A stretch of DNA of 64,000 bases from an uncultured virus (IMG/VR IMGVR_UViG_3300044846_004358) (lineage: Duplodnaviria > Heunggongvirae > Uroviricota > Caudoviricetes), in IMG/VR virus record IMGVR_UViG_3300044846_004358. One strand, given 5' to 3'. The position numbers and the translations under genes are program-made. Below are positions 26,011-52,911 of this stretch, one piece after another. Each line of letters starts with the position of its first letter. The stretch's first letter is position 1. The notes below the pieces were generated by a model. The model was not told the origin of the DNA. It did not search any database and saw nothing but the letters and a program-made list of their open reading frames with translations.

Positions 26011-26045
26011 CATTATGGTATTTATGTAGATAATATAATTTGAAT

Positions 26046-26498
26046 ATGAAACTAATAATAACTGAAGAACAATATAGATTACTGATTGAGAATGAAGATG
26101 GTAAGAATCTTATTGATTTAACATCATTTGAGAATTTGAAACCATCAGCTTTGGATGATATGTTTTTACATATTAATAAAAAGAAGGGTGGGAAGTATGA
26201 TGGATATTATATTGATGGGGATTTGGATTTATATGAAAGAGAGGCCGATGTTACCACTTTGGATTATTTGGTTAAGGTTGGTGGTAATCTTTATTTGGCA
26301 AATACAAAAATAGAATCTTTACCAAGATTGACTGAGGTTGGTGGTTTTTTGAATATAACAAAAACCAAAATAAAATCATTACCAAAGTTATCATCGGTTG
26401 GGGGTTATTTGGCTTTACTTTTTACTCCCCTCTCTAAGAAGATTAGTAAAGAAGAATTGGAGAAACAAATAAATGTTGGAAGAGAAATATATCTATGA
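26046..26498 (+). CDS. Class-D leader plus LRR-like repeat protein 1
   Basis: MKLIITEEQY; ~21-aa repeats LPRLTEVGGFLNITKTKIKS; TATTTAT at 26019-26025. Confidence 0.8.
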   Translation: MKLIITEEQYRLLIENEDGKNLIDLTSFENLKPSALDDMFLHINKKKGGKYDGYYIDGDLDLYEREADVTTLDYLVKVGGNLYLANTKIESLPRLTEVGGFLNITKTKIKSLPKLSSVGGYLALLFTPLSKKISKEELEKQINVGREIYL

Positions 26499-27088
26499 AA
26501 CTAATAATAACTGAAGAACAATATAGATTAATCATTGAGAATGAAAATGGTGGTAAGTTATTTACTATACCAACTGAATTAATAAAGGATGAAGAAGGTA
26601 TTGATAAACTATTCACATTATATCATAAAACTAAATCTAAAAAAGGTTGGGTTGGTATAAAGATTTTGGGTGACTTGAACTTGAGAATAATGAACTTTGA
26701 CGATACTTTTCACTTATTTAGTTTATTACCTGAAATTGTTTATGTTAAGGGAAATATTTTATTACCTGAATATGATTTTGATTTCGATTTTAATAAATTG
26801 GAATATGTTGGTGGTAGTTTTAGAGGTCATTTGACAGGTGAAGTGTTATTACCAAAATTAAAAAAGGTTATGGGGTTTTTATCGTTATCTGTTAGTAATC
26901 TTACATCATTACCCGAACTAGAATATGTTGGAGGTGGTTTGAATTTGAGGCAAACACAGATAAGTGAATTACCAAAATTAAAATATGTTGGTGAGGCAAT
27001 GAGCTTGATGGGGACACCCTTTGCTAAGAAAACAAATAGAGAGGAACTAAGAAATAAAATACAAGTAGGAGGAAATATATTATTATGA
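26495..27088 (+). CDS. Class-D leader plus LRR-like repeat protein 2
   Basis: LPELEYVGGGLNLRQTQISE-type repeats. Confidence 0.82.
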   Translation: MKLIITEEQYRLIIENENGGKLFTIPTELIKDEEGIDKLFTLYHKTKSKKGWVGIKILGDLNLRIMNFDDTFHLFSLLPEIVYVKGNILLPEYDFDFDFNKLEYVGGSFRGHLTGEVLLPKLKKVMGFLSLSVSNLTSLPELEYVGGGLNLRQTQISELPKLKYVGEAMSLMGTPFAKKTNREELRNKIQVGGNILL

Positions 27089-27735
27089 AACTAATAATAA
27101 CTGAAGAACAATTAAGATTGATTATTGAAAGTGAGGGTGATGGTAAATTATTTAATGTGCCTAATGCTTTTTTACAAACAATAGGTGGTGTAACTAAGAC
27201 CTTAAATCTTTATAACAAATTAAAAGATGTTAAAGGATTTGATGGAATTAAGGTTATTGGTAAATTGGATTATTATGAGATTGACGCTGATGATAATGAT
27301 GACTTGGATAATTTCACCAATGAGGTTGTTTATATTGATGGAACTTTAATTTTGGCTGAAGAAAATCCTGATAATAATTTCGGTAAATTGAAAGTTATTG
27401 ATGGTAATTTGAGAGGTTCTGAGGTTGATAATATTTCATTCCCCAATTTGGAATATGTAACTGGTGATGTTAGTTTGGAAGATAGTGGTATTAGTGAATT
27501 ACCGAAACTGAAAGAGGTTGATGGTTGTTTATATTTACAAAGAACAGGTATTCATTCATTACCAGAATTGAAATCTGTTGGATTACATTTGAATCTTTAT
27601 AACACAATTATTAAGGATTTACCTAAGTTAGAAATTGTTCAGGGTGTATTGACATTGAGACATACACCTTTAGCTGATAAAAAAAATGAAGAGAAACTAA
27701 GAAAAATACAAGTAGGAGGACATCTTAATTTATGA
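27085..27735 (+). CDS. Class-D leader plus LRR-like repeat protein 3
   Basis: LPKLKEVDGCLYLQRTGIHS-type repeats. Confidence 0.82.
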   Translation: MKLIITEEQLRLIIESEGDGKLFNVPNAFLQTIGGVTKTLNLYNKLKDVKGFDGIKVIGKLDYYEIDADDNDDLDNFTNEVVYIDGTLILAEENPDNNFGKLKVIDGNLRGSEVDNISFPNLEYVTGDVSLEDSGISELPKLKEVDGCLYLQRTGIHSLPELKSVGLHLNLYNTIIKDLPKLEIVQGVLTLRHTPLADKKNEEKLRKIQVGGHLNL

Positions 27736-28304
27736 AAATAATAATAACAGAAGAACAATATAGATTATTGATTGAGGGTGAGGGTAGATTACTTCCTGTA
27801 CCTGAAGATATGTGGAATCAAGATGGTGGTATTACAAAGATTTATAGTTTATTTGACAAGACCAAGGACACTAAGAATTGGGTTGGTATAAAGGTAATTG
27901 GTGATTTGAGTTTAACATATGAGGATGACGAACATCTTAAAGATTTCTGTGAATACTTAGTTGAGGTTACAGGTGATTTTGAAATGTCAAACAGAAAAAG
28001 ATTTGAATTTCCTTTATTAATTAAAGTTGATGGTGATGTTAATATTGCGAACTCGGATATTGATTTTCCAAAATTGAGATATGTTGGGGGTGATTTTAGA
28101 GGAAGAGGAAGTGATACTGAGGAACTACCTGAATTGGAATATGTTGGTGGGTCATTATCATTAAGAGAAACTTTTATTCAGGATTTGCCAAAATTGAAAT
28201 ATGTTGGTGATGTATTGAATATTATGGATTCATCCCTCTCTAAGAAAACTACTGAGAAAGAATTAAGAAGTAAAATAAATGTTGAAGGAAACATATGGTT
28301 ATGA
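27732..28304 (+). CDS. Class-D leader plus LRR-like repeat protein 4
   Basis: LPELEYVGGSLSLRETFIQD-type repeats. Confidence 0.82.
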   Translation: MKIIITEEQYRLLIEGEGRLLPVPEDMWNQDGGITKIYSLFDKTKDTKNWVGIKVIGDLSLTYEDDEHLKDFCEYLVEVTGDFEMSNRKRFEFPLLIKVDGDVNIANSDIDFPKLRYVGGDFRGRGSDTEELPELEYVGGSLSLRETFIQDLPKLKYVGDVLNIMDSSLSKKTTEKELRSKINVEGNIWL

Positions 28305-28699
28305 AGTTAATAATTACAGAATCTCAATATAAGGAACTTAATAAGATTGATGATATCTATGATGGTTTAGACCCATATTATCGTAGGAGGATTGATTATA
28401 TTGATATAAAGGACGATATTGATATGAGGATTGGATTTAGGCAAGTTTTTCCTTCTCAAAGGGAAGCTTTGCACGGGCGTATGAATGTTCTTAAGAAAAG
28501 TCCTCGTGGTATTGATGGACATATCGATGATATAATTCATAATGTTGTTTGGAGTACAATACCTGATGAGTGGGGTGGAAGTGAAGATGAAAGATTATTT
28601 GATTATGTTAATGAAATGACAGATAGAGTTAAAAAGAAATATCGTGGTTATATAATGGGTAAATTACTTAAAATGCTTGAAGATGAGGATAATAATTAA
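28301..28699 (+). CDS. Class-D leader hypothetical protein (paralog pair 1a)
   Basis: ESQYKELNKIDDIYDGLDPYYRRRI...NVVWSTIPDE, shared with the next gene. Confidence 0.78.
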   Translation: MKLIITESQYKELNKIDDIYDGLDPYYRRRIDYIDIKDDIDMRIGFRQVFPSQREALHGRMNVLKKSPRGIDGHIDDIIHNVVWSTIPDEWGGSEDERLFDYVNEMTDRVKKKYRGYIMGKLLKMLEDEDNN

Positions 28700-29027
28700 T
28701 GAATCTCAATATGACGAACTAAATAAGATTGATGATGTCTATGATGGATTGAAACCTTATTTTAGGAGGAGAATTAAATATATTAATATTCCTGAGGCAA
28801 TTGATAGGGTAATTAAAAATATTGACAGATTTTATGATAAGACCGCGACATTTCATTATTTAGTTACAAGGGTTATTAGTAATGTCGTATGGGAAACTAT
28901 ACCTGATGAAATGGGTGCAAATACTAATATGGAATTATTTGAATATCACGATACAATGGCCGCCAACATAATGGACAAGTATGGTGAATACATTAAAAGA
29001 TTGGTTAGAAAAAGAATGGATAAATGA
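28683..29027 (+). CDS. Class-D leader hypothetical protein (paralog pair 1b)
   Basis: ESQYDELNKIDDVYDGLKPYFRRRI...NVVWETIPDE. Confidence 0.78.
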   Translation: MRIIINESQYDELNKIDDVYDGLKPYFRRRIKYINIPEAIDRVIKNIDRFYDKTATFHYLVTRVISNVVWETIPDEMGANTNMELFEYHDTMAANIMDKYGEYIKRLVRKRMDK

Positions 29028-29599
29028 AGGTAATAATAACTGAAGAACAATTTGATAAGTTCACAACTAAGATTAGACAACTAATTGACAACCAAGGTTT
29101 TATTGAGGCGAGTGAAATGATGGGTATCAATAAATTGAAGCTTGCTGAAATGAGTAATCTTCCTATAAAAGGTGATATCAGAGATTCAAGATTTACTGAT
29201 GATAATGAAATTGTTGCAAGTGATTTGTTGTCTGATTTGGTAAAGAAAGATGACAAATATAAAACTTGTAATCTTGAATATTTTATTGATGGAGTATTAT
29301 TGTGGGAATGTAGATTTAAGGATGAGGAAAATTATTATTATGTTGGTGTTGATGCAACACCATATTGGGCGGGTTATGAGAAAACACAAGTATCTATAAC
29401 AAATATTCATATAGCACCAATTGATTCACCTGAGGACAAAGAAGAATATGTAATAAACATATATGATGAAGAGTTTGATTGTCCTAAATCATTTGAAAAT
29501 GTGAGTGAATTTGTTGATTGGTTTGAGAATGAATATAAACCAAAAACATATAATTACATTAAAACTTTACTTGATAGATTTAAAAAAGAACAATTATGA
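29024..29599 (+). CDS. Class-D leader hypothetical protein (paralog pair 2a)
   Basis: KLKLAE.S.LPIKGD, CRFKD.ENYY, ATPYW, FDCPKSFEN shared with 30369..30935. Confidence 0.8.
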   Translation: MKVIITEEQFDKFTTKIRQLIDNQGFIEASEMMGINKLKLAEMSNLPIKGDIRDSRFTDDNEIVASDLLSDLVKKDDKYKTCNLEYFIDGVLLWECRFKDEENYYYVGVDATPYWAGYEKTQVSITNIHIAPIDSPEDKEEYVINIYDEEFDCPKSFENVSEFVDWFENEYKPKTYNYIKTLLDRFKKEQL

Positions 29600-30369
29600 A
29601 AATAATAATAACTGAAGAACAACATAGATTGATTAAAGAATCAAAAGGAAAATTGGCCAAGATTAGTTTGAAATCTTTACCTGGTGATTCTAATGAAGAG
29701 AGATATCTTAACTTTATGAAACTATATAAGAAGGCCAAGGAAGCTAAAGGTTTCACTGGTATTCATATCATTGATGATTTGAACTTGAGCACGGCATTTA
29801 TTAAATCATTGGGTGAGATTAAGAAAATTGATGGTGATTTATATTTAAGATTTTCATTTGTTGAAGACCTTGGTGATTTGGAATATGTTGGTGGTAATGT
29901 GTATTTGAAAGGGTCTGACCATTTAAAATCTCTTGGTAATCTTAGAGAAGTTGGTGGTGAATTGTCTATTGAAGATTGTGTTGAATTGGAAGATTTGGGT
30001 CAATTGGAAACTGTTAAAACCATTAAAGGATTGGAGACCACAAAGGTTACAAGTTTGGGTAATCTTAAAGAAATTGGTTATCTTTGGGGAGGTAATGATG
30101 TAGATATTACCGAAAATATTAAATCATTGGGTGAGTTGAGAAAGGTTGAAAAGTATCTTGATTTAAGTAAAAGTAAAATTGAAACTTTGGGTAACTTGGA
30201 ATATGTTGGTGATTGGTTAGATTTAACCGATTCTCGAGTAGAAGATTTGGGTAATTTGAAGTTTGTTGGTTCTAGTATGAGTATATGGAGAACTCCATTA
30301 TCTAATAAATATGACCCCAATGAAATCGAAGAAATGGTTGATATTCAAGGGGTATTAAATTACGACTAA
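29596..30369 (+). CDS. Class-D leader plus LRR-like repeat protein 5
   Basis: LGNLEYVGDWLDLTDSRVED-type repeats (about 8). Confidence 0.82.
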   Translation: MKIIITEEQHRLIKESKGKLAKISLKSLPGDSNEERYLNFMKLYKKAKEAKGFTGIHIIDDLNLSTAFIKSLGEIKKIDGDLYLRFSFVEDLGDLEYVGGNVYLKGSDHLKSLGNLREVGGELSIEDCVELEDLGQLETVKTIKGLETTKVTSLGNLKEIGYLWGGNDVDITENIKSLGELRKVEKYLDLSKSKIETLGNLEYVGDWLDLTDSRVEDLGNLKFVGSSMSIWRTPLSNKYDPNEIEEMVDIQGVLNYD

Positions 30370-30935
30370 TGAAAATAGTAATTACAGAAAATCAAATGGA
30401 TAAGTTTGCCCAAAAATTAAGAATGGGTATTGAAAAACATGGGTTCACTGATACTGCCAGAATGACAGGTATGAATAAGTTGAAATTAGCTGAACTTAGT
30501 GGATTACCAATCAAAGGAGATACATTCCATAGTGAAAACGAAATTGTTGTTGGTGATTTACTTAGAGATTTGGTTAATCAAAATAGAGAATACAAAACTT
30601 GTGAATTACATTATTCTGGATTAGAGGGTATAGTTGAATGGAATTGTAGGTTTAAGGATGATGAAAACTATTATAGATTAACTATTGCTGCTACACCATA
30701 TTGGGATGGTAATAATACACCTATTGATATGTTTAATGTTGAAGTAACTCCAATTTACTCACCTGAGGATAAAAAAGAGTTTGAAACTATTAATGATTAT
30801 TTACACGAATTCGATTGTCCTAAATCATTTGAAAATGCTAATGAATTGATGGATTGGTTTAGGGAAATCTATATTCCAAAAACATATGATATTATTGTAA
30901 AAAGTTTAGAGGATTTTAAGGAGAGGGAATTGTAA
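30369..30935 (+). CDS. Class-D leader hypothetical protein (paralog pair 2b)
   Basis: Paralog of 29024..29599. Confidence 0.8.
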   Translation: MKIVITENQMDKFAQKLRMGIEKHGFTDTARMTGMNKLKLAELSGLPIKGDTFHSENEIVVGDLLRDLVNQNREYKTCELHYSGLEGIVEWNCRFKDDENYYRLTIAATPYWDGNNTPIDMFNVEVTPIYSPEDKKEFETINDYLHEFDCPKSFENANELMDWFREIYIPKTYDIIVKSLEDFKEREL

Positions 30936-31427
30936 CTATCTCAAATTATGATTTATATCTAAATCTATTTTCATTGGTGTAAATGGTACAACAATATCAT
31001 AAATAATATCATCTATTTCACTTTGTATTTCCCACCAAAAATCTTTTTCCCACAAATCAGAGTCCCATAAGTCATATGTTTCACCATCAATTAAAATTAG
31101 TGTAACTTCACCCTTTAATATTTTTACATATACAGCCCAAGTATCATTCATTCCCCAATCAATATCTGTAATCATAAAATTAAAATCATATCCACCAGTT
31201 TTAATTTCAAAATCTTTTATTGAGAACTCTTTATCAATGAAGAAATCTTTGGCCAAATCAATTGGTGTGGTGTCAAGTGTTTTGGCAACATTATTAACAC
31301 CAAATAATTTGATAGATTCGATTAATCCTTTTTTTTCAATTAGATTAATCATTTTATCTTTGGGTGATATTGATTCATTTACCCCCATCATTTCTTGTAT
31401 TCTATTTAATTGTTCTTGTAGGTTCAT
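30936..31427 (-). CDS. Hypothetical protein with class-F leader (MNLQEQLNRIQEMMG)
   Basis: Leader DNA near-identical to that of the upstream gene. Confidence 0.8.
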   Translation of the reverse strand: MNLQEQLNRIQEMMGVNESISPKDKMINLIEKKGLIESIKLFGVNNVAKTLDTTPIDLAKDFFIDKEFSIKDFEIKTGGYDFNFMITDIDWGMNDTWAVYVKILKGEVTLILIDGETYDLWDSDLWEKDFWWEIQSEIDDIIYDIVVPFTPMKIDLDINHNLR

Positions 31428-31801
31428 TTTACAATTGCAGGTATTTTATCAACATTTAACAAATTTAATAGGTTTGCTCTATGATTTCCATCTTTTAAAT
31501 GATAAGTATCATCAGGTAATTTAATTAATAATACTGGGTCAGATTTAACATATTTGTATATTGATTCAATAATTTCTGGCATTTCTCTTAATTTGAGTAT
31601 CAAATCTTTAAATGAATTAAAATTGGGTAAGTCAAAATTTTCTTCATTTGATATATGCTTTAATAAACTAACCATTGATTCAGGAGTAAATCCTTGTGTC
31701 CCTACTGAACCATTTGGTCTTCTGAGTTCATCAGTTGGAATTAATTTATAATCAATCCCCATCATTTCTTGTATTCTATTTAATTGTTCTTGTAAGTTCA
31801 T
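31424..31801 (-). CDS. Class-F leader plus ParB/Srx-like domain
   Basis: DPVLL...YHLKDGNHRA...IPA; start moved to 31801. Confidence 0.7.
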   Translation of the reverse strand: MNLQEQLNRIQEMMGIDYKLIPTDELRRPNGSVGTQGFTPESMVSLLKHISNEENFDLPNFNSFKDLILKLREMPEIIESIYKYVKSDPVLLIKLPDDTYHLKDGNHRANLLNLLNVDKIPAIVK

Positions 31802-31802
31802 A

Positions 31803-32750
31803 TTACCATTGTCTATTATGTATGTTGATTGAGTCAATAACATCTATTTTAACATTACCATATTTTTTCAATTCGTGTTTCAGCTCATATATAAATTGAT
31901 TTTCGTCAATATATCTAAGATATGAGTATTTTATTACAATTTGAATTGTGTTGTCACTCGTAATATCTACAACTTTTGCTTCTACTAATGCTTCTAAAAA
32001 ATCACAAGTATCTATGGATATGTTCCTATCATCTATACTATCTAATTCACAGTCCTTTTTCATACCATCTATAGATTTATCAATTAGTTTTTGGAATGCT
32101 AATAGTTTTCTGTTTGAATCTTCTTTTAATGATTTCACGCCTTCGCCATCATCTGACCACATTTCTTTCTTTCCAAGTATTTCTATTGATTTGAAATCTT
32201 TACAAGCAATATTAATCAATCCTTCTTCGTGTGTTACAAAACCATTAAAACCTTTTGACTCTATGAAATCTAAAAACTTATCTGTTTCCAAGATTGCCCA
32301 AGAATCATTGAACTTGGTTAAAAAATAATATAATAATCCCACCATATCATCTTCATCTCCACCAGCATCAATATAATATTCCATTACTTCATTTATGCTA
32401 TCCACACCAGTTTTTTCCCATTCATTTAGAAAGTAACTTAGGTTGTCTTCAAACAATTCTAATACTTCATCTTTATAATCTTCCAAGGTATATTTTATAC
32501 CATAATCATTAATATGTTTGAAGGTGTTGAATATTTTGTTGGGGTCAAATTGTAATTTAACTTTATATGTATATTTCCTGTCGATAAATGTGTTTGGTTC
32601 ATTACTGAAGAAAAGATAGTTAGTTCTCTTGTCTTTATTGATTTGGGTGTTAAATGAATTGATATCATAATCTGAGTTGTGATAAAAAATACCACCACCT
32701 GATTCAGTTTGTTCCCTCAATATTCTTCTTATTGTTTGTTTTAGGTTCAT
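31803..32750 (-). CDS. Class-C leader protein, possible ADP-ribosyltransferase-like N-terminal module
   Basis: MNLKQTIRRILRE; FYHNS...F...YLFFS and GFNGF...IA motifs recall ART-like domains of polyvalent proteins (weak). Confidence 0.5.
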   Translation of the reverse strand: MNLKQTIRRILREQTESGGGIFYHNSDYDINSFNTQINKDKRTNYLFFSNEPNTFIDRKYTYKVKLQFDPNKIFNTFKHINDYGIKYTLEDYKDEVLELFEDNLSYFLNEWEKTGVDSINEVMEYYIDAGGDEDDMVGLLYYFLTKFNDSWAILETDKFLDFIESKGFNGFVTHEEGLINIACKDFKSIEILGKKEMWSDDGEGVKSLKEDSNRKLLAFQKLIDKSIDGMKKDCELDSIDDRNISIDTCDFLEALVEAKVVDITSDNTIQIVIKYSYLRYIDENQFIYELKHELKKYGNVKIDVIDSINIHNRQW

Positions 32751-33130: not shown

Positions 33131-33440
33131 TACAGGTTCTTACATATTTTGATTTCATAACTATTGTTTGGTTGGTAAAATCGTAAACCAAATCCCAAGC
33201 TTCGTTCATTATTGAATCGTGTTTTTCTTTGGCATAAAACGATACTTTACCTCTATGAACGATGAATGTAAATGTTACTTCATAACTTTCTCCATCAACA
33301 GATTGTACAACCTCAACACCACATAAAATATCTTTATTATGTTTAACTAATAGTTTATTTAACAGATTTTCAAGGATTGGTGATAAATCCTTTTGAGTTT
33401 CTTCCCTCAATATTCTTCTTATGGTTTGTTCTAATTTCAT
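33123..33440 (-). CDS. Hypothetical protein with class-C leader (MKLEQTIRRILREE)
   Basis: 105-aa ORF. Confidence 0.78.
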   Translation of the reverse strand: MKLEQTIRRILREETQKDLSPILENLLNKLLVKHNKDILCGVEVVQSVDGESYEVTFTFIVHRGKVSFYAKEKHDSIMNEAWDLVYDFTNQTIVMKSKYVRTCNE

Positions 33441-34840
33441 TTCTTTGTCTTTTTAACGCAATTAGGATATCTTTTACCAAACATTGTTTTCATTCCTTTT
33501 TGAGTATAATCAGGCCAACATTTTTCTGTTAATTCACCCTCTCTGATTTCCCCTTGTTTTCCCATATGACTGAATACTTTTCTAATATTTTTAGGAAGTG
33601 AATTGATTGGTATTATCTTTGCTTTGATTGTTTCTAACCCTTTTCTTATTGCTTTTTGTGCTCTGTGGTGACCATCTATGATTGATATAAATGAACCATC
33701 GTCTTCAACAAATATTAGTATTGGATATTGTAAATCGGCCTTATCTATTTTTTTTATTTCATCTTCATCACCATCCCATGATAATAGTTTTGACTTTAAC
33801 TTTTCTACTGGTATCTTTTTAATTGGAATATCTTTAGTCGCGTCTAATAAATCAATAAGAGTAATTCTATCACCTTCATCATTTTCCCAAAATGTATCGT
33901 GTAAACCTTCTTTTTGTAATCTTATTGTCTTTTGTTTTGATTTTTCTTTTTGTGTTTCGATATAATCATAAGCTCTTTTCAATCTTTTCTTTGTCTCAGG
34001 GTCTTTGGCATTTTGATAAGCAGCTCTCACCCTTTGATGAATAAGATTAATGATTTGAGATTGTCTTTTGTGAGGTTTTGATTTGAAACTTTCTTTGTTC
34101 AAGGTATCAACAATATCCTCTTTGGTTCTAAACTTAACTGAAACTGTATCTTTTGGATTTTCGTCAGTATATAACCTTCTACTAGAACCTTCAGGTTTTT
34201 TACCAGTACCAACTTTGGGGTCAGCTTCATCAATTTCTTCTCTATTATAGGGTCTAAATCGATTGGGGTTAGCTTTGATTGCTGACTTTGGAAATCTTAG
34301 ACCTGCACCTTGTTGTCTTGCATTTTTCAAGGTTCTTGCATACTCAGACATTTCTTCATCCAATTTTTCTGTATTTGTTCTGTATTGTTTATACAAGTTT
34401 TTGAAGAAACTATTGTTTTTTAACAAATCTCCAAATTTCAAATACAATAATTTTGGTGTATCAGGTATTATCCATTCTGTTGTTTCAAAATTAACTAATT
34501 TGGAATGGAAATCATCAATTGTAACATCAATAATAAATTCAATAACATTATCCATTGGATTATTTTTCAATCTAGGATAAAATGTACCAGGTCTTTCTCT
34601 CATCCAAGACATTGTGTCAAATAACGAATTTTCGAATTCTTCATCAGTAAAAATTGTTTCGAAAGGATTATATTTTTCTAATAATTCTTTTTCTGTCATA
34701 TGTAACATATTAGACAATCTATTGATATCATTACCAAACATTTTTAATGTGGTAACTAATCCATACTTGTCCAAAGTTTTTTGAACTTTTTCTGCATGGG
34801 ATTCTTTGAGTATTCTTTTTATTATATTTCTTATCTCCAT
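33437..34840 (-). CDS. Multi-module class-C leader protein including a ParB/Srx-like domain
   Basis: MEIRNIIKRILKE; GTGKKPEGSSRRLYTDENPKD module; ADLQYPIL...IIDGHHRAQKA; terminal CW.DY...G.K...GK..PNCVK module. Confidence 0.75.
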   Translation of the reverse strand: MEIRNIIKRILKESHAEKVQKTLDKYGLVTTLKMFGNDINRLSNMLHMTEKELLEKYNPFETIFTDEEFENSLFDTMSWMRERPGTFYPRLKNNPMDNVIEFIIDVTIDDFHSKLVNFETTEWIIPDTPKLLYLKFGDLLKNNSFFKNLYKQYRTNTEKLDEEMSEYARTLKNARQQGAGLRFPKSAIKANPNRFRPYNREEIDEADPKVGTGKKPEGSSRRLYTDENPKDTVSVKFRTKEDIVDTLNKESFKSKPHKRQSQIINLIHQRVRAAYQNAKDPETKKRLKRAYDYIETQKEKSKQKTIRLQKEGLHDTFWENDEGDRITLIDLLDATKDIPIKKIPVEKLKSKLLSWDGDEDEIKKIDKADLQYPILIFVEDDGSFISIIDGHHRAQKAIRKGLETIKAKIIPINSLPKNIRKVFSHMGKQGEIREGELTEKCWPDYTQKGMKTMFGKRYPNCVKKTKK

Positions 34841-36744
34841 TTTGCTTGTGGTAATAATTTCTTTCCGTGTTTAATCAATTCTTTTTTCACATATTCTTTT
34901 TCCTCAATTGAACTGAATAATTCTTCTCTTTCATCCGCCCATTCATCGATAATATCATCCATTTTCATTTTCCTTGTTTTTGCCTGAGTATAAAAACCTT
35001 GTAAATAAGCATCCTTTTCTTTTGGTGTTAATACTTCTTCGGCAAATGTATCGGTGGGTATTTCTTCGACCTTTTTATATGGATTCTCAGATTGATATAA
35101 ATGTTCTATTTCGTGTCTTAATACATCTTTTAACTCAGCAAACAATTTATTGAGATTCTCCATCTTGAAATTCGTATCAATATAAATCTGTAAATTAACA
35201 ACATCTATGCTATCTTCATCGTCCCACTTTTGTTCAGCATGAATATCATATGGTGTGCGTATATCTTCAGTTATAGCTGTAAGCCTCACAGTAAAAGTAG
35301 TTGTTGAATACTGTTCTTCCTCCTCTTCGTCATCATATTCTTCATCATCCATAAAATCTTCATAGTCGAATTCTTCTTGGAAATATTCTTCCTCCCATTC
35401 AAGTTCTGTTGATTCTTCATCCCTGATGAAATCCATTAACTCTCTTTTTATATCTCTCCAAATCTGTAATATGGTTTGACTATATCTTCCTTCAGTCAAA
35501 ACATCCTTGGATATTCCCATCATTTCGTGTATTCTATTTATTTGTTCGTTCAAATTTGAATTCTTCAAATTTTTGGATGTCCTAACAAATTCATAAACAT
35601 CATCACAAATTTTAATATTTTTTAAATTTTTGATTGGATAGAGGTCTCTTTTATTTTCAAAGGTTGTGAAATATTCAATATAATTTTCAACATCATAATA
35701 TGAAATACAACCTAATTCCATTCTTTTCAATAACCAACTCAATTTTTCATAATTTGGATACAATTTTACCATTTTTTCAAACAATCCGTAATCCACTATT
35801 GAGGGAGCATAAATACTTTCTAATTCATCTATTTTTGCTTGTGTTATGTTTTCAGTCCAAGCCAATCTTTCCTCCTCTTCTTTTTTTCTTTCCTCCTCTT
35901 CTTTTTTTCTTTTTTCCAATTCTTTTTCCTCTTCTTTTTTCGATAACTTTTCAAGAAAATTATTTTGAGCTTTTGGTGCTAAATCTCTTGCTATTTTCAT
36001 TAGTTGTTCACAAGTATCTGAAAATTCATCGAATTTATTATTTTTGTTTTTACACTCTGAGTCATAAAAGGGGCTAATTTGTATGGGAGTTTCAGGATTA
36101 TTTTTTTGATGGAAAACAACAAGATAATCTTTATTTATGTAGTCTACAAATTTTCGTTTATTTGTTAATGTACAAAATCTAACATAATTATTCCTATTAC
36201 GATTTTCACAATCCCCCAATATATTCTTGTATGCTTTGTACATAGGTTCATACATGTATTCGTACTCAAGATTATAGTCAAGATGAGGAATTACAAAAAC
36301 TTGATATCCACTATGGACACCCATATATTCAATAAAATTTTCATTTAGTTTTTTGATATCAGAAAAATTTATAAAATGTTCATCTTCAAATGAAATTTTA
36401 TCAATTAATTCATTTGATATTGAAATAAAATTTTTGACATCTGAACAAGTTTTTATCTGACCTAAATCTTTTATTGGAAAATTTTTTTTATGTTTATCGA
36501 AAATTTTGAAATATTCCACAAAATCAGGTATTTTATTATACGAAATACAATTTGATTCTAATTTTTTCAAAATCCATATGAATTGTTGGTATTCCTTGAA
36601 TGTATTTTTCAATTCGTCAAATTTTTCTGACGTAACTATTTTTTTTTCATCGACATATTTGTACCGAACCTCATTAGGATTATATACTTCAGTAAGAAGT
36701 CCCATCATTTCGTGTATTCTATTTATTTGTTCTTGTAGTTTCAT
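34831..36744 (-). CDS. Multi-module protein with two class-F leaders, an internally duplicated domain and a C-terminal HExxH module
   Basis: EQINRIHEMMG at the N-terminus and internally; two W.LK..E..CISY...EYF..F...PIK.L..IK.C.DV repeats; LRHEIEHLYQ. Confidence 0.8.
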   Translation of the reverse strand: MKLQEQINRIHEMMGLLTEVYNPNEVRYKYVDEKKIVTSEKFDELKNTFKEYQQFIWILKKLESNCISYNKIPDFVEYFKIFDKHKKNFPIKDLGQIKTCSDVKNFISISNELIDKISFEDEHFINFSDIKKLNENFIEYMGVHSGYQVFVIPHLDYNLEYEYMYEPMYKAYKNILGDCENRNRNNYVRFCTLTNKRKFVDYINKDYLVVFHQKNNPETPIQISPFYDSECKNKNNKFDEFSDTCEQLMKIARDLAPKAQNNFLEKLSKKEEEKELEKRKKEEEERKKEEEERLAWTENITQAKIDELESIYAPSIVDYGLFEKMVKLYPNYEKLSWLLKRMELGCISYYDVENYIEYFTTFENKRDLYPIKNLKNIKICDDVYEFVRTSKNLKNSNLNEQINRIHEMMGISKDVLTEGRYSQTILQIWRDIKRELMDFIRDEESTELEWEEEYFQEEFDYEDFMDDEEYDDEEEEEQYSTTTFTVRLTAITEDIRTPYDIHAEQKWDDEDSIDVVNLQIYIDTNFKMENLNKLFAELKDVLRHEIEHLYQSENPYKKVEEIPTDTFAEEVLTPKEKDAYLQGFYTQAKTRKMKMDDIIDEWADEREELFSSIEEKEYVKKELIKHGKKLLPQAKWR

Positions 36745-36747
36745 ATA

Positions 36748-37740
36748 TTACTTTAATGTTGATTCCAAATATTTTAAGTCCTTAATTTGTTGTTCTTCAT
36801 CTCTGTTGAAAACTTCGAATGGGAAACTTTTAAGTCCTAAGTTGTATGCTGCTAATAATCTGTGTCTTCCATCACTTATACCAATTTTTGGTACATCATA
36901 ATATTGTTTTTGACTATTCTTATCATACTCAAAACTTTCAACATATAACATTGTTGGTTGGTATGCTTCGACATTTGGATTTTTCAGATATTCCATTGCC
37001 TTTTCTAATCTATCCCCAATTCTTACACCTTGATTTCTTATATCAAAACCTGAACCCATATCTTTACCAACTCTTTCCAATACTTTTTCTGGTGATAAGA
37101 ATATTATTGTTGAGTCACTATATCTTTTAACAATTTGTTTGGTACTCCAATCAATATTAAATCCTCCTTGTGTTTCAGTTGACTTGGTTGTTTGACCTGA
37201 ACTTATATTACCATAACTTTGTTTAAGATATTGGAATAATGCTTTTATTAACTCTAACATTGAGTTGTTATCTTTGATTGTTAAATTGTAATATCTTTCA
37301 ATTTTTGGTTTCAAAGTATTGATATCTGATGTTGGGGTTTCTTTGATTTCGTTTACAACTTTTTGAATATCATTGTACAAGTAGTACATATACTTAAAAT
37401 ACTCATTAAACTTTTCAAACCCCAAACTACTAGTTGATTCACTTTCTAATAATGGAGATACCTCTGAATTTGATGTTTTGTTAATTAGATTTAATATCTT
37501 TTCAGCATTTGTTCCTGTTAAAAATATTTGATTAAAAAAGGTATCTAATTTTTTTGAGAAAACTTGGATGAATGTTAGAACATTTTCTTTGTTATTTCTT
37601 GAATTGTTTTGGTGTATTTCTCTTAATTGTTTGTATATCTCGTCAACATAGATTTGATTCCCAAGTAGATATTCAACTTCTTTACTAATTGAAGTAGTTT
37701 CTTCCATCAAAATGTTTCTGATAATTTTTTGTAGTTTCAT
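36748..37740 (-). CDS. Class-C leader protein with C-terminal ParB/Srx-like motif
   Basis: MKLQKIIRNILMEE; ISDGRHRLLAA; TATTTAT motif at 37746-37752. Confidence 0.72.
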   Translation of the reverse strand: MKLQKIIRNILMEETTSISKEVEYLLGNQIYVDEIYKQLREIHQNNSRNNKENVLTFIQVFSKKLDTFFNQIFLTGTNAEKILNLINKTSNSEVSPLLESESTSSLGFEKFNEYFKYMYYLYNDIQKVVNEIKETPTSDINTLKPKIERYYNLTIKDNNSMLELIKALFQYLKQSYGNISSGQTTKSTETQGGFNIDWSTKQIVKRYSDSTIIFLSPEKVLERVGKDMGSGFDIRNQGVRIGDRLEKAMEYLKNPNVEAYQPTMLYVESFEYDKNSQKQYYDVPKIGISDGRHRLLAAYNLGLKSFPFEVFNRDEEQQIKDLKYLESTLK

Positions 37741-41218: not shown

Positions 41219-44047
41219 TTAGAACTTGTGACTTACACCAAATGTAAATGTCACACCAGGATTGACTGAATTGAATATTTGTTTTTCAGCTTTATATGAT
41301 TGATAAAAACTTTCCACTCTATCATTAAGAATATTTTGTACTCTAAAATCTATTGATGTATTCTTAATCTTTTGACTTACAGATAAGTTTAATGAGTGAA
41401 ATGGTTCATCATAGATATCAGGTGATAATCCTGTTCCAACGATGGATAATGTTTGTCCTTTAACATTATAAAACACACCCACATTTAATCCAATCTTTTC
41501 GACATTATAAGATAACCCAGTATTAATAACAAATGGTGATTGTCCGGCCATAACTCTGGTATTGTTTATGTTCTCACCATCTCTTTCATATTGTTTCCTT
41601 GCTTGGTATTCTGTCTCTGTCATTGTTATTTTGGATTGAGCAATGGTGACATTGGTATTGAAAGAAAAGTTCTTTAGAAACGATTTTCTTAACTCAAACT
41701 CAATTCCATATAAATCCCCATTTCCAACATTCCTTGGTTGATATTCCGTTGATGTTTGTTGTTCAGGTATTCTTACCAATTCAATTGGGTTATTAAAGTG
41801 TTTATAAAATCCTGATACAGAGTAAAAATCCTTATCTTTGGCCAACTCCCATCTCAAATCCAAGTTATCAATATTCGTTTCTCTTAGATTACCATTCCAA
41901 GTTCCGTTATAACTGAATAAACCTCCATTGAATATTCTATTTGTGATTGGGTCTAATATTTGAGCATAAGACATTTCCTTGAATGATGGTCTGGCAATTG
42001 TTCTGTTATATGATAATCTAAGATTTTGTTTTGGGGTTATTGAATAGATTAAGTTAGTAGATGGAAATAAATGAAATGTATTTAATACAATATCATTTTT
42101 AAGATTGTTTCCATTCATATCACCATTGGCATATCTTATATCTCTTCCTGTATGTCTTTGGATAAAATATTCAGCTCTTAATCCACCATTAATTTTGAAT
42201 CTATTTTTAATATTATATTCACCTGAAACATATACACCAGTGTTATTCACATTTGATGAATATTGATTTGGGTTTGGGTTAACATTACCAGATTGAATAT
42301 ATGTTCCATTAATCTCACTTGGATATAAGTTTTCCGTACTCATAACAAGATTTGGGTCTGGTGTTGTCCAAGATTGCGGTTTGGAAAACATCAATTCATA
42401 TAACTTGATACTATAATCTCTTAACTTATATGAATGTGATACACCAAAGTTTAATTTGAAGTTATTAAATTGTTTGGATACATCAACTTTAACATTATTG
42501 TTAAACTCACTTAAGTTTCTCCATATCCTTGATGGATTACCAGCTTCACCAGATGAGAATGTATATGTTCCATCATAACTGAATGGTGTCTTTCTAATAT
42601 CAGGGTCAACTGATGAAGAATAAGTTGGGGATAATTTCCAATCAACATTCCAATCATTGATGTTATGTTTTCCACTTAATAATAAATTGGTTAAACCTCT
42701 TTGGTTATATTCCAAGTTATATGATTTGGCTTCATAACCTGATTGTCCAACGGCATTTGAGTTGTTAGTTATATTGAATACACCTGCTCTACTTTCCCCA
42801 CTCTGTAAATGAATAAGATTTAGTTTGTATTTACTCTTACCTTTGGTATAGTTAAACCCAACTAATCCACCCAAGAAGTTATTAATCTCAGTAAGTTGTC
42901 CTGATTGTTTGGTTGCATATATCAATTCATTCTCATTATGATTTGATGACCTTTGATATTCACCATACTTTACATCAGTATAAAACTTGTAATCAGTTTT
43001 ATGATTGATTGATAAGATATATCCAAAGTTCTTATTTGTTTTACCATAAGATATACCACCACCGAAATCAATCATACTTAAATCAGTTGTAGCCCCTAAT
43101 ACAGGATTCAATCTGTTTAACAAATTGACTATGTTTTGTTGATGTTGTGTTGAACTGATATTTGATGGTTTGTTAAATGGGGTTGGGATATAACTTCTAT
43201 TCAATTCGTCAGGTAATCTTCTTAAACCACCATCAAATCCCAATATATCAGTCGCTGAACCTTTTTCACTTATGAAGTTGGGATTGAAGTGAACTTGGGG
43301 ATTATAACCTAATGATAATGAGAAAGAACCTTGACTTGTTTCAGGTATATCTTTTGTTTCCACATTAACCAATCCACCAGTAAAATCAGCAGGTAATTCA
43401 GGTGAAAAACTTTTTGATACGACAATATTATTCAGTAAATTGGTTGGGAAGATATCCATCTGTAATGAGTTTCTATCTGGGTCTAAACCTGGTATTTCAA
43501 TTCCATTTAATAATGTCTTGGAATATCTATCACCCAATCCTCTTACATAAACATATTTACCACTTTCGACTGAAACTCCTGTAACTCTTTTACTTGCATC
43601 AACCGCATTATTGTCACCAGTACTTTTCATTTTCTCAGAACTGATACCATCCAATAAGATATTGGATTCCATTTTCATATCAATTAATGCTGTTTCATTT
43701 TTTACAATCCTATCAGCTGTAATCACAACTTCACCTGTCTGTAAAATATCTTCTTTCATATAGATATCAGGCAAACTTGTCAGGTCACCAACTAGTGAGA
43801 TTTTTTCTATTGTAATCTTTTGATATGATATATAGGAAAACACCAAATCAATCGTGTCCAATTCTGTTGTAATTGAAAATGTTCCATCAAAATCGGTAAT
43901 CACACCTGTTGATGTCCCCTTTATAATAATTGTTACACCAACCAAAGGTTCTTCAGTTGTTGCATCAATTACTTTACCAAATAATACATTTTGTGAATAA
44001 GAGAGGAGGGGAAGTAAAACGAATAATAACGATAATAATGTTTTCAT
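41219..44047 (-). CDS. TonB-dependent outer-membrane receptor (Bacteroidota type, N-terminal carboxypeptidase-regulatory-like domain)
   Basis: Signal peptide; GKVID..T.EPL.GV.I...GT..G..TD.DG.F; plug RVTGVSV...YVRGLGDRY; beta-barrel; C-terminal Phe. Confidence 0.92.
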   Translation of the reverse strand: MKTLLSLLFVLLPLLSYSQNVLFGKVIDATTEEPLVGVTIIIKGTSTGVITDFDGTFSITTELDTIDLVFSYISYQKITIEKISLVGDLTSLPDIYMKEDILQTGEVVITADRIVKNETALIDMKMESNILLDGISSEKMKSTGDNNAVDASKRVTGVSVESGKYVYVRGLGDRYSKTLLNGIEIPGLDPDRNSLQMDIFPTNLLNNIVVSKSFSPELPADFTGGLVNVETKDIPETSQGSFSLSLGYNPQVHFNPNFISEKGSATDILGFDGGLRRLPDELNRSYIPTPFNKPSNISSTQHQQNIVNLLNRLNPVLGATTDLSMIDFGGGISYGKTNKNFGYILSINHKTDYKFYTDVKYGEYQRSSNHNENELIYATKQSGQLTEINNFLGGLVGFNYTKGKSKYKLNLIHLQSGESRAGVFNITNNSNAVGQSGYEAKSYNLEYNQRGLTNLLLSGKHNINDWNVDWKLSPTYSSSVDPDIRKTPFSYDGTYTFSSGEAGNPSRIWRNLSEFNNNVKVDVSKQFNNFKLNFGVSHSYKLRDYSIKLYELMFSKPQSWTTPDPNLVMSTENLYPSEINGTYIQSGNVNPNPNQYSSNVNNTGVYVSGEYNIKNRFKINGGLRAEYFIQRHTGRDIRYANGDMNGNNLKNDIVLNTFHLFPSTNLIYSITPKQNLRLSYNRTIARPSFKEMSYAQILDPITNRIFNGGLFSYNGTWNGNLRETNIDNLDLRWELAKDKDFYSVSGFYKHFNNPIELVRIPEQQTSTEYQPRNVGNGDLYGIEFELRKSFLKNFSFNTNVTIAQSKITMTETEYQARKQYERDGENINNTRVMAGQSPFVINTGLSYNVEKIGLNVGVFYNVKGQTLSIVGTGLSPDIYDEPFHSLNLSVSQKIKNTSIDFRVQNILNDRVESFYQSYKAEKQIFNSVNPGVTFTFGVSHKF

Positions 44048-44122: not shown

Positions 44123-44773
44123 TTATCCGTATTTTTCTTCGTGGTAATCTAATATGGTTTGGATTACTTTTTCTTCATCTTTTTGATTCATATTATGAAT
44201 CTCACGATTGTCTTTGAACCACTTTCTAACAACATCTTCAAATGGAGTTTGTTGTAGTTTTGACACTCTTCTAAATCCTTGTATTTGTGCCCCCAATTCT
44301 TCAGGTGACATATAATATTTCTTACCTTTTTTTTCTTTCTTTTTTCTAGTTAAATTGAATTCCCCGTGATACTCTTGTAATCCGTGTTCCAATTCGTGAG
44401 CAATAAGATTGTTTAATTCTTCTATAATCTCATATAATTGTCCTTCCAATTTATTTGGATTAACTATTATTTTTACTTCAACAACATCATCTTCCAAACT
44501 ATAACTTCCATTTGTCATAAACCTCAAAGTATTAGGATTGAATACTAAATGTAATTCAACACTAAATTGAACTGGGTAGTTATTAAATGAATAAAAATCT
44601 TCATCGGGGTTCTCAGGTAATATAAAAGAACCTTCTTCACCTCTTTTTAATATCTTTATTATATCTCTTACAACTTCTCTTACAGCTTGTCTACTCATAC
44701 GAGCTTCAGTTATTGTTTCTAAACCCATATTTTTCAACATTTGGTTTACACTTTCATTTAAGTTCGTTCTCAT
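44123..44773 (-). CDS. Class-F-like leader protein with HExxH module
   Basis: MRTNLNESVNQMLKNMGLETITE; IAHELEHGLQ...EE..A.IQGF; paralogous to the C-terminal module of 34831..36744. Confidence 0.72.
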   Translation of the reverse strand: MRTNLNESVNQMLKNMGLETITEARMSRQAVREVVRDIIKILKRGEEGSFILPENPDEDFYSFNNYPVQFSVELHLVFNPNTLRFMTNGSYSLEDDVVEVKIIVNPNKLEGQLYEIIEELNNLIAHELEHGLQEYHGEFNLTRKKKEKKGKKYYMSPEELGAQIQGFRRVSKLQQTPFEDVVRKWFKDNREIHNMNQKDEEKVIQTILDYHEEKYG

Positions 44774-47209: not shown

Positions 47210-48910
47210 TTACTTCTTTATCATTGTTTGGATTGTCTCGTGTAAGGATGATAGGTGTTTTATCCTTATGGTATATTTTCCTGATGGAATATTGGAGGTA
47301 TTAATCGAAACATAATTTCCACAAGTTTGACAACTTACATTATATTGAAATACTTTCTGTCCTAATATATTAATGACTTGTATCTCCAATTCTTCATTTT
47401 GTTCACTTTCGTAAGTATAAATTAATGAATCTTCAAATGGGTTGGGATAAACTTTGGATTCTATTTGGTTTTTTGTTTCTAAATAAATGATTGAGGAATA
47501 TGAAAAGGTTTCATCTAAATCTACCATTTTTAATCTATAATAATTTGAACCACTATAAGGTGAGTTATCTATAAAGTTGTAACTTTTGGATGGGTCAGTT
47601 TCCACAATACCTATTTTAATAAAATCATATCCATTGTTACTTCTCTCTATTTCAAAGTGTGAACTATTAATTTCTTGTTCTGTTAACCAGTACAAATGAT
47701 TTTCTCTACCTTCATTGTGACCATCAAAGGTTGCTAAGTAAATTGGTAATATACAATTGGGGTCAACAAAAACATTTACCATTGCTCTTGAACTAATACA
47801 ACCATTCAGTTCCGCCTCAGCATAAAATGGTGTATTATTAAGTAAGGGCGATGTTGTATAACTATATCCAGTACCTAACAATGTTCCACTTGTTGAAGCA
47901 TCGTACCATTGTAATGTTCCAATATTTGATGAACCATATAACACAGCAAAATCACTTGGACATATTGTAGTATCAGGATTTAATGTTGGTATATTTGGTA
48001 TTGGTTTAACCACAACATTAGTTGAAGAGGTTGAACTACAAGTATTTCTCGTACCCAAACCATTAATCATACCATTGTATGTACCAGTTACAGAATATGA
48101 TGTTGTTGAGGTGGGTGTAAATGAAACACCATTAGATATACCACCATCCCAAACATAAGTATTAGCGCCTGATGCCGTTAATGTGGTTGGTGTACCATCA
48201 CATACACTATTAACACCATTTATTGTAATTGTTGGTGTTGGTATTATTTCGATAAGTTCAACATTATCAATCCAAAACTCTTCACCAGCTGAATTGGCAC
48301 GACAATATAAATCCACAGCAACCTGAGTGATGTTTGGTTGTAGATTCAAAGTAATTGTGGAAGGGCCAGTTGTTGTTGCTCCCGCTGGTGCCTGATAAAC
48401 ATCACCAGTTGGTGCTGCTGAGTTTGTGAATGTTCCGTTTGCTGTATGTGTAATTGTACCTGTTGAAGTATATGGCCAAGTAGCATTTGAGTTACCAGTT
48501 ATTCTTAATTCTGTCACATAAGAAACACCCCCATTTGTTGAAACTTGAACACTCAAATAATCTGCAACATCTAATCCTCTAGTTGTTGCAGTAGAATTAG
48601 AAAAGGTATAAGAAGCTAATCTAAACTTTAGTTGATATGAATATGCGGGATTTAATCCGGTAATATTAGGTAGAGAATACCAATCTTGTTCAATTGCTGA
48701 AGTACCATTACCTGAACCATAAATTACAGCACTAATATTTGCCGATACTGAAGCATTCGTAAAAAAACCAGTAGTTAAAGCTGGTGTCCACCAATCACCG
48801 AACCAAGTAAAGGTTTCCATATTGTCATAATAAACGGTGGATGTACAAGATTGTGTATAAACATTAACACTGAATAACACAGAGAGAATAAACAATAATA
48901 TTTTTTTCAT
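47210..48910 (-). CDS. Secreted Thr-rich Ig-like protein with T9SS type-A C-terminal sorting domain
   Basis: Signal peptide; Ig-like repeats (C.G...TLTASGA.TY.W); LPI.L..F...W.T.QE.N...F.IERS; KVYPNPF...INILGQ...PSGKYTIRI...IKK. Confidence 0.88.
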   Translation of the reverse strand: MKKILLFILSVLFSVNVYTQSCTSTVYYDNMETFTWFGDWWTPALTTGFFTNASVSANISAVIYGSGNGTSAIEQDWYSLPNITGLNPAYSYQLKFRLASYTFSNSTATTRGLDVADYLSVQVSTNGGVSYVTELRITGNSNATWPYTSTGTITHTANGTFTNSAAPTGDVYQAPAGATTTGPSTITLNLQPNITQVAVDLYCRANSAGEEFWIDNVELIEIIPTPTITINGVNSVCDGTPTTLTASGANTYVWDGGISNGVSFTPTSTTSYSVTGTYNGMINGLGTRNTCSSTSSTNVVVKPIPNIPTLNPDTTICPSDFAVLYGSSNIGTLQWYDASTSGTLLGTGYSYTTSPLLNNTPFYAEAELNGCISSRAMVNVFVDPNCILPIYLATFDGHNEGRENHLYWLTEQEINSSHFEIERSNNGYDFIKIGIVETDPSKSYNFIDNSPYSGSNYYRLKMVDLDETFSYSSIIYLETKNQIESKVYPNPFEDSLIYTYESEQNEELEIQVINILGQKVFQYNVSCQTCGNYVSINTSNIPSGKYTIRIKHLSSLHETIQTMIKK

Positions 48911-51087: not shown

Positions 51088-51618
51088 TCACACCTGAGGG
51101 TTTTTTTTATCATACTGATATAACTTGTACTTTTTAATAATCGATGTCAATGTATTTGTATATGTATTCGATGTTGCATATCCACACCTTTTAAGATTTC
51201 TAACCCAACATTTCCAATCATCCCCACACTCTCTACATCTCTTATATCTCTTTCCCATCAGGAACTGAGAATGGTCACGGAAACTATACCAATTACTTTC
51301 ATAAACCTTAAACCTGTCAGTTGGTTTATCATCAGCAAACCTTTTGGAGTTTTTATAATTACATCCACTAAAACACTTAATACCAAAATGATTGTTGGTT
51401 TTCTTGGTTAGGTCAGATTGACCACTCCTCGATTCCAATATACCCTGAGCCAGAGTAACAGATGCGGGAATACCAAACTTCTTGTGTTCGTAAACTGCAA
51501 CCTTTTTGAACCTATCAATGTATTGTTCAGTTGGTGTTAACTTCTTTTCAACAACTTTTTTAGGTTTTAGATATGGAATAAATAAAAGGAGGGGAATAAA
51601 ATAAATAATTCTTTTCAT
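51088..51618 (-). CDS. GH73 glucosaminidase (second copy)
   Basis: GIPASVTLAQGILES..G, NNHFGIKC, SFRDHS, GYAT; TATATTTG motif at 51642-51649. Confidence 0.9.
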   Translation of the reverse strand: MKRIIYFIPLLLFIPYLKPKKVVEKKLTPTEQYIDRFKKVAVYEHKKFGIPASVTLAQGILESRSGQSDLTKKTNNHFGIKCFSGCNYKNSKRFADDKPTDRFKVYESNWYSFRDHSQFLMGKRYKRCRECGDDWKCWVRNLKRCGYATSNTYTNTLTSIIKKYKLYQYDKKNPQV

Positions 51619-51673
51619 ATCGTGTAAGTTTGGTTCTTTCACAAATATAAAAAGAATTAGTTAAATTGGAAAT

Positions 51674-52651: not shown

Positions 52652-52911
52652 AATTGTGCTTTTAATTTTTCATAATCAAACTTACTAACAAAATCCATCG
52701 CATCATCCAACTCATCCCATCTTTTCTTTATCCACAATGAGTTCCAATATGCGTCATCCTTTGTTCGGTGAGCTAAGATATACCAAGATAAACCTGAACG
52801 AATGATTTCAATGTTGAAGTGGTTTTTTCTGCAACACCAACTCAATCCTCTATTACATCTATCTCCGTATTTTTGTGTGAATGTCGTTTTGTTAAATACC
52901 TTTTTTACCAT
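52648..52911 (-). CDS. Hypothetical protein
   Basis: 87-aa ORF. Confidence 0.65.
   Translation of the reverse strand: MVKKVFNKTTFTQKYGDRCNRGLSWCCRKNHFNIEIIRSGLSWYILAHRTKDDAYWNSLWIKKRWDELDDAMDFVSKFDYEKLKAQL

Follow-up and report, generated by a model that had tools for sequence, protein, structure and literature searches.

An internal leader peptide marks the in-frame fusion of two leader-tagged genes in an uncultured T4-like giant phage of lake water

Introduction

How does a peptide that begins many proteins of a phage come to stand in the middle of one of them? The question is raised by a 64,000-nucleotide stretch of an uncultured virus of the Caudoviricetes (IMG/VR record IMGVR_UViG_3300044846_004358), referred to here as the window, in which one long open reading frame (ORF) contains the same short leader, designated class F, at its N-terminus and again internally (Table 1). 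The first-pass annotation, prepared from the sequence alone, interpreted this frame as an in-frame fusion of two cassettes, and that interpretation is now strongly supported by relatives in which the halves are separate genes and by an open frame in other assemblies. The role of the leaders is a second question, for which a more cautious answer is proposed: with a probability of roughly 0.55, they are capsid-targeting propeptides that are removed by a protease.

A full-text literature search on the leader motif strings did not find the leader family, and the phrase 'capsid targeting sequence' (CTS) does not occur in the papers listed for jumbo phage, metagenome and Bacteroidetes. The additions made here are a leader inside a protein, a close relative in which the genes are unfused, and a set of orthologues in which leaders of different classes meet the body at one fixed junction.

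An in-frame fusion of two genes

The encoded protein is composed of a leader (MKLQEQINRIHEMMGLLTE), an N-terminal module (N-module), a second leader (NLNEQINRIHEMMGISKDVLTE) and a C-terminal module (C-module), and the early observation of one leader at the N-terminus and another within the frame is borne out. The DNA of the two leaders shares an exact direct repeat, which was originally given as 32 bp and is 33 bp long, each copy having been cut one base short at its low end. The resemblance noted between the C half and a stand-alone protein of the window also stands: residues 396–607 align with this paralogue from its residue 3 onward (25% identity over 217 columns, E value 3e-11), with HEIEH over HELEH and AYLQGF over AQIQGF. 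A duplication within the N half likewise exists, although its size of ~55 residues was an underestimate; residues 36–113 and 316–393 are identical at 28 of 78 positions (36%, E value 7e-19).

Several lines of evidence support a fusion, among them homologues that carry the halves separately, which the first-pass annotation had suggested looking for and which exist for both. First, a search of proteins of near-equal length (350–1115 residues, 7998 scored candidates) is passed by two entries, protein P0002 and the cluster to which the window's own protein belongs (53 member sequences), and yields no other protein holding both halves. P0002 is a stand-alone N half of 403 residues that is 44% identical to residues 1–396 and stops there; its end, ...KEILNT, aligns to ...KNLKNS directly ahead of the internal leader. 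Second, a search of residues 397–637 against shorter proteins returns 35 matches, of which 31 were read after exclusion of the fragments P0004, P0034, P0036 and P0037. In 30 of these the C half is a complete stand-alone gene coding for 215–256 residues (44–77% identical) that begins with Met and a leader and continues with GRY...; the remaining one, P0035, derives from the fused form but is a fragment with a frameshift. Third, contigs from four sequencing runs were compared along the ORF region, and run X19 contains a close relative whose contig covers 34811–35547 with 19 differences (~97% identity; of the 14 differences listed, 8 are synonymous and 6 nonsynonymous). This contig crosses the 33-bp core and then reads, in gene orientation, ATG AAA CTA CAA; its upstream flank, of which 30 of 81 letters are visible, is unlike the end of the N-module, and the upstream frame ends in a 4-nt overlap with the C-half ATG. 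With an ATG and an unrelated flank, that relative thus has the C half as a normal gene of its own.

The same join is present in five further assemblies, which come from different samples and whose contigs range from 13 to 148 kb. Three IMG/VR contigs (L001, L002 and L003) and L028 carry the fused frame without any difference, and it is open in L029, where eight base differences, all in the C half, change three residues and leave the junction intact. That the fusion is real is close to certain, and the ORF is best explained by the recent joining, in frame, of two cargo genes that lay side by side in a gene array, each with its own leader.

Table 1. Features of the fused ORF, its stand-alone paralogue and the head module. 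Locations are window positions, except where contig G001 is named; aa, amino acids; pI, isoelectric point; E, E value.
Feature	Location	Strand	Residues or length	Details
Fused ORF: leader, N-module, leader, C-module	34831..36744	-	637 aa	ATG start; 77.4 kDa; pI 4.9
N-terminal class-F leader	36688..36744	-	aa 1–19	[I/L]-x-E sites ending E5, E12, E19
N-module	35557..36687	-	aa 20–396	Core, ~aa 15–240, is a widespread phage domain
Helical sub-domain, copy 1	36406..36639	-	aa 36–113	36% identical to copy 2
Long K/E-rich single helix	35809..36018	-	aa 243–312	Joins core to copy 2; AF2 secondary structure
Helical sub-domain, copy 2	35566..35799	-	aa 316–393	Elsewhere only in P0002 among relatives found
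Internal class-F leader	35491..35556	-	aa 397–418	TCA replaces ATG; [I/L]-x-E sites ending E400, E407, E418
C-module	34834..35490	-	aa 419–637	Starts GRYSQTIL; 26.8 kDa; pI 4.4
HEIEH	35101..35115	-	aa 544–548	In C-module
Stand-alone C-module paralogue	44123..44773	-	216 aa	Own leader ending ITE|ARMS
33-bp exact repeat, internal copy	35515..35547	not assigned	33 bp	Direct repeat
33-bp exact repeat, N-terminal copy	36700..36732	not assigned	33 bp	Direct repeat
Portal	G001		595 aa	Head module
gp21-family prohead protease	G001		240 aa	PF03420, E 7.5e-24, above cut-off; beside portal, scaffold and capsid genes
Scaffold-like protein	G001		516 aa	Very acidic
gp23-type major capsid protein	G001		622 aa	PF07068, E 1e-64

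Route of the fusion

Each ancestral gene would have coded for an N-terminal leader of ~19–22 residues followed by an unrelated body. Loss of the stop codon of the first gene and the start codon of the second would have joined two such neighbours, and translation would now give leader, N-module, leader and C-module in one chain. Overlaps of 4 nt are usual between neighbours in the gene arrays (e.g. 26495/26498, 27085/27088 and 33437/33440), so that the loss of a few nucleotides suffices to join two genes. The observed join reads ...AAT TCA AAT TTG AAC GAA CAA..., and two routes fit this sequence. A 2-nt loss from a 4-nt stop/start overlap could have occurred ahead of a leader starting MNLN, a variant that occurs in L041 and P0039; alternatively, 17 nt could have been lost between two copies of GAACAA, from a junction like that in X19.

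Among the matches listed, no relative has the N and C genes adjacent yet unfused. In L030, a 2.3-kb metagenome contig with 95% identity to P0002, the N-module gene is followed by another class-F leader gene instead of a C-module gene; in L007–L010, the sequence up to 6 kb from the C-module contains no N-module. The N-module gene of L030 (3–949) is itself split into two frames at ~698, possibly by a frameshift or by a sequencing error.

The leader as a portable module

Leaders were counted with motif patterns for five leader types in ORFs of at least 60 residues. Of the 146 such ORFs in the 98-kb parent contig of the window, 35 (~24%) start with a leader, mostly in tandem arrays. Among 93 distinct leader copies in the sequences examined, a single one sits at least 60 residues inside an open frame, and that is the internal copy of the fused ORF. 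The class-F family comprises 42 distinct copies in these sequences; 41 begin an ORF with ATG, and the internal copy has TCA in its place.

The 30 stand-alone C-half orthologues carry different leaders: class F in 7, MKIIISEQQLKxIITE in 19, MKLKQTIKRILNEE in 3 and MKKLIRKILLEY in 1. All 30 nevertheless join leader to body at [I/L]-x-E|G-R-Y, and no row of the 32-row alignment of the C half departs from the junction Glu and Arg, the Gly being almost as constant. The N-module relatives that were read (12) also start with various leaders. On these alignments, the leader is a separate, swappable module.

The two modules

Structure prediction, named in the first-pass annotation as a check, yielded AF2 models of both halves but a fold match for neither. 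In the model of the N-module (mean pLDDT 89.6), the first helical sub-domain leads into an alpha/beta core, and a single helix of 70 residues is followed by the second sub-domain copy. Its core has 108 representative relatives at E≤1e-3, among which only P0002 spans residues 1–395. The N-module has no Pfam family and no PDB match, and Foldseek finds nothing in the PDB at E≤1e-3; in a wide VIA-align search the best score (Z 6.0) is a partial match in the range that the tool calls uninformative. PcfJ, a lead from a protein atlas (33% of a cluster), is unconfirmed by Pfam scans.

The C-module (mean pLDDT 79.7) has an acidic stretch and is modelled as a helix, a four-strand sheet, a helix carrying the HExxH motif and a helical bundle. 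H544, E545 and H548 of HEIEH are invariant in 32 sequences, as is E576, which lies 28 residues past H548. In a comparison with zincin (HExxH) metallopeptidases, SprT-like ones included, E576 is at most a putative third metal ligand. The fused ORF matches no Pfam family (E≤0.01) and no PHROG, and the C-module has no PDB sequence-profile match at E≤1 and no Foldseek match in the PDB at E≤1e-3; its best VIA-align score (Z 5.5, root-mean-square deviation 4.9 over 69 residues) involves the C-terminal helices only and is in the uninformative range. Lax Pfam scans of all alignment members of both modules give scattered weak matches only. Two relatives of the C-module are named 'predicted SprT family' in one source. 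An assignment as SprT-like is not supported: 3 of the 32 members match, with a best E value of 0.12, and a protein-atlas lead (21% of one cluster) is unconfirmed by Pfam scans. A named family for the C-module is backed by none of the curated models, PDB sequences or folds compared, and the module is not classed here as a peptidase.

In other phages, the HExxH module forms the C-terminal end of proteins of 816–907 residues with a nucleotidyltransferase-like N-terminus (L011 4864–7464, L013 3257–5887, L016 4666–7116 and L054 679–3402). The long protein of this kind in Flavobacterium phage immuto is annotated as an NMN adenylyltransferase.

The phage and its head module

The window is part of a virus contig of 98,377 bp with 30% G+C. 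A longer IMG/VR contig of 147,874 bp, G001, represents the same phage (99.99% identity across the 11.5 kb compared) and contains an identical fused ORF. Its completeness is estimated at ~50%, so the genome may be near 300 kb. G001 carries a T4-type head module with a portal, a protease, a scaffold-like protein and a gp23-type major capsid protein (Table 1). The gene for the 240-residue gp21 homologue has the coordinates L053 6720–7442 (minus strand). The gp21-type protease and gp23-type capsid genes both lie off the 98-kb contig; genes within the window are non-structural and include thymidylate synthase, DNA methyltransferases and endolysin-like proteins.

The capsid protein matches 1630 phage records, including T4-like phages of cyanobacteria, Pelagibacter and enterobacteria. 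Its maturation site was not located by alignment with T4, tblastn covering only residues ~379–609 in nearly all listed matches; the best of the tblastn matches listed, H5, spans residues 19–613.

At least 97% of the sampled words of the ORF are present in 18 lake-water metagenome runs from 2018–2025, and the phage is an uncultured T4-like giant phage of lake water. Its host is probably a member of the Bacteroidota, because the window codes for a TonB-dependent receptor and a type-9-secretion sorting domain and because Flavobacterium is the host of the one cultured phage that matches the fused ORF at all.

Neighbouring genes

The TonB-dependent receptor (41219–44047, minus strand) is full-length, with CarboxypepD_reg, Plug and beta-barrel domains (E value 2e-28), and the type-9-secretion C-terminal sorting domain belongs to an Ig-domain protein (47210–48910, minus strand). 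Host-envelope genes of these two kinds are uncommon in phages. A leader-bearing protein starting MKIIITEQQY... (14412–15098, minus strand) has a lysozyme/endolysin-type domain (phrog_7, E value 1.3e-34). Endolysin-like genes at 13231–13863 and 51088–51642 have hydrophobic, signal-like N-termini instead of a leader. The 142-residue product of 52905–53333 (minus strand) matches phrog_6791 (E value 8.8e-39, function unknown), and its N-terminus resembles, by eye only, SmpB, the partner of tmRNA.

Several observations concern other leader-bearing genes. Near-fixed, atypical class-F leader codons are found, for example, at 36700–36744 and 31383–31427, and many genes upstream of a leader stop 1–4 nt ahead of the leader ATG. 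At 26040–30935 (plus strand), nine consecutive genes start MK[LIV]IITE..., most with a 4-nt overlap to the next; L007 and L008 carry similar arrays in a different order. Three leader-bearing proteins, all on the minus strand, end in DG[RHN]HR: 36748–37740 (ISDGRHRLLAA), 33437–34840 (IIDGHHRAQKA) and 31424–31843 (LKDGNHRANLL). These ends resemble domains of the ParB/sulfiredoxin type, and the two of the three that were scanned have no Pfam match at E≤0.01.

The gene next to the fused ORF, 33437–34840 (minus strand, 467 residues), itself appears modular. In the X19 relative, 15 letters replace 34349–34810, and a 184-residue stand-alone class-F protein of L030 shares the C-terminal end of its product (...YTQKGMKTMFGK.YPNCVKKTK). 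This gene may be a second fusion or may contain an insertion.

Function of the leaders

The reading preferred here, that the leaders are capsid-targeting propeptides, draws on the internal proteins of T4. IPIII and IPII start with MKTYQEFIAE followed by Ala, and IPI has STITE followed by Ala-Thr at residues 15–21 and is cut after residue 19. According to PMC9026906, T4 gp21 cleaves behind the Glu of L/I-x-E, a stretch of 10 residues at the start of IPIII suffices for targeting to the head, and a protein attached behind IPIII or its CTS is packaged and processed. PMC3012670 presents the T-even internal proteins as diverse, with the CTS as their only shared part.

By analogy, the leaders would bring proteins into the prohead core. 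The N-terminal leader would load the whole polyprotein, and the gp21-type protease would cut after E19 and E418, and possibly also after E5, E12, E400 and E407. These cuts would release an N-module of ~46–48 kDa and the 26.8-kDa HExxH module within the head, and both would be ejected with the DNA. Processing of the internal leader at VLTE|GRYS, which the first-pass annotation had proposed for the head protease, is plausible from the sequence, and that this copy is actually cut is somewhat less probable than the targeting reading itself.

Several features are consistent with this proposal. The fused ORF contains 12 [I/L]-x-E sites, 6 of which fall within its 41 leader residues, against a background of 0.015 per position. 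The class-F leaders end in [I/L]-x-E in 30 of 42 copies (36 of 42 with Val allowed), mostly at residue 18–19. Both AF2 models have their lowest confidence in the leaders (pLDDT <50 at residues 1–7 and 14–22 of the C-half model, 57–73 in the N-half leader), and this low confidence suggests that the leader stretch may be exposed.

The parallels with T4 extend beyond the motif. Like the CTS of IPI, IPII, IPIII and Alt, the leaders are short N-terminal peptides common to unrelated bodies, and a small residue comes after their terminal [I/L]-x-E (T4, FIAE|A, TITE|A; this phage, LLTE|V, VLTE|G and TITE|A). A gp21-family protease and a gp23-type head module occur in the same phage here, as in T4, and the cargo genes are diverse and fast-changing, as PMC3012670 describes for the T4 internal proteins. 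By eye, the leaders and the N-termini of T4 IPI, IPII and IPIII have an MK start, Q-E near positions 4–6 and an I/L-x-E|A/G end in common, a likeness too short for statistics. The differences are equally clear. At least four leader classes of 16–23 residues, with two or three [I/L]-x-E sites, are found here as opposed to one CTS; approximately a quarter of the ORFs of the 98-kb contig are tagged, orthologues swap class and the host is probably of the Bacteroidota. Homology between CTS and leaders is not demonstrable.

Other known systems share part of this arrangement. Engineered T4 IPIII fusions, as PMC9026906 describes them, place a second protein behind a leader-tagged head protein, and the natural ORF is arranged in this way too, its linker being a complete copy of the leader. 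The T4 examples are constructs, whereas here the gene is natural, both partners are phage cargo and the internal cut is only predicted. The IPIII expression-packaging-processing system reportedly goes back to Hong and Black in 1993 and to Mullaney and Black in 1996. In phiKZ and SPN3US, propeptides of head and inner-body proteins are cut by gp175 and gp245 after Glu in a three-residue motif with redundant sites, according to PMC9026906. These too are giant phages with many head proteins, and their redundant sites recall the three per leader in the fused ORF; however, their motif is S/A-x-E, their propeptides are not a shared portable tag, and their head is of the phiKZ type rather than the T4 type found here. 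As in Rosetta-stone fusions, the halves are separate genes in relatives, with 4-nt overlaps typical. Unlike in those fusions, a whole targeting and cleavage signal would be kept between the halves, and because the join retains it, the two halves may come apart again as proteins.

Several points weigh against the preferred reading. The motif [I/L]-x-E is short and the protein set is rich in Ile, Leu and Glu. The search patterns for leader classes A to C themselves contain [I/L]-x-E, which is circular, so only the class-F motif count is independent, and the 42 class-F copies are related by descent. The T4 CTS has been tested at the N-terminus, whereas the copy in question here is internal. Conservation of the leader DNA exceeds what the peptide demands: CTA encodes Leu3 in 34 of 42 copies but makes up 7% of Leu codons genome-wide, and ATA and GGG are likewise over-used, a pattern that fits spread of the DNA by recombination or a constraint at the mRNA level. 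A leader in about a quarter of the ORFs is far above the few processed head proteins of T4. The fusion is known only from one ~99.9%-identical population and may therefore be young and neutral. Finally, metatranscriptome X20 provides a single 206-nt contig with 11 differences, from a relative and possibly from DNA; run X19 is labelled RNA-Seq but may be DNA, and neither gives evidence of transcription.

The alternative that survives best, a minority possibility, is that the leaders are not targeting or protease signals at all but conserved N-terminal helices or 5' coding DNA, the internal copy being a relic linker in a two-domain protein. Recombination joints, a translation-start region in a host without Shine-Dalgarno pairing, and a docking helix for another complex are candidates that share in this possibility. 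The near-fixed codons, off the usage of the genome, agree with it, and a leader on ~24% of the ORFs would be many for head proteins. Leaders vary between orthologues and array order varies between relatives, as crossover points predict, and Logan contigs are interrupted at the leader, since it occurs in many genes. However, the junction Glu, Gly and Arg are kept whichever leader class stands in front, which indicates a signal at the protein level; three distinct peptide classes each end in [I/L]-x-E; and the phage encodes a protease of the matching family. The strictly N-terminal position of 92 of the 93 leader copies fits a tag or a start region and is not required of a recombination joint. 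Targeting and recombination roles are, moreover, compatible with each other.

It is less likely that the C half is made separately from an internal start, either TTG (codon 398) or ATG ATG (codons 408–409), so that the two products would in practice remain independent, with the fused frame as a minor read-through product. Candidate start codons do lie in or beside the internal leader, and array genes are tightly coupled by 4-nt overlaps. No stop codon precedes the internal leader, however, so that a ribosome coming from the N half neither terminates nor restarts at the junction, and initiation at codon 408 would yield a truncated leader.

An assembly artefact, in which the 33-bp repeat misled assemblers and the halves are not contiguous in the genome, is very improbable: although the Logan contigs (k=31) of X1 and X18 end exactly at both repeat copies, the three Logan pieces in X1 have similar depths (16.3, 15.3 and 12.5) and five longer assemblies agree on the join, while the repeat is shorter than one read and the fused path is the sole path that uses every piece once.

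A more extensive version of the propeptide reading is tentative and itself more doubtful than not. The ORF could be a working natural polyprotein, in which one tag loads both bodies and the internal tag is the cut site, within a modular system of at least four interchangeable leader classes that double as DNA crossover points.

Implications

If the natural polyprotein reading is true, one gene delivers two separate injected proteins. If the modular tag system is true, any gene could be plugged into the injected repertoire, and the leader classes could set loading routes or amounts. The orthologue set, in which one body occurs behind three leader classes at one fixed junction, is a natural swap experiment that marks the boundary between tag and cargo. 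As was done with T4, portable tags of this kind could be put to use for bringing foreign proteins into capsids of phages that are not models. If the leaders are capsid-loading tags, this group of phages would inject, along with its DNA, a protein repertoire that is very large and quickly reshuffled, and those leader-tagged genes that lack an assigned function would become candidates for early host takeover or anti-defence functions in abundant phages of lake Bacteroidota.

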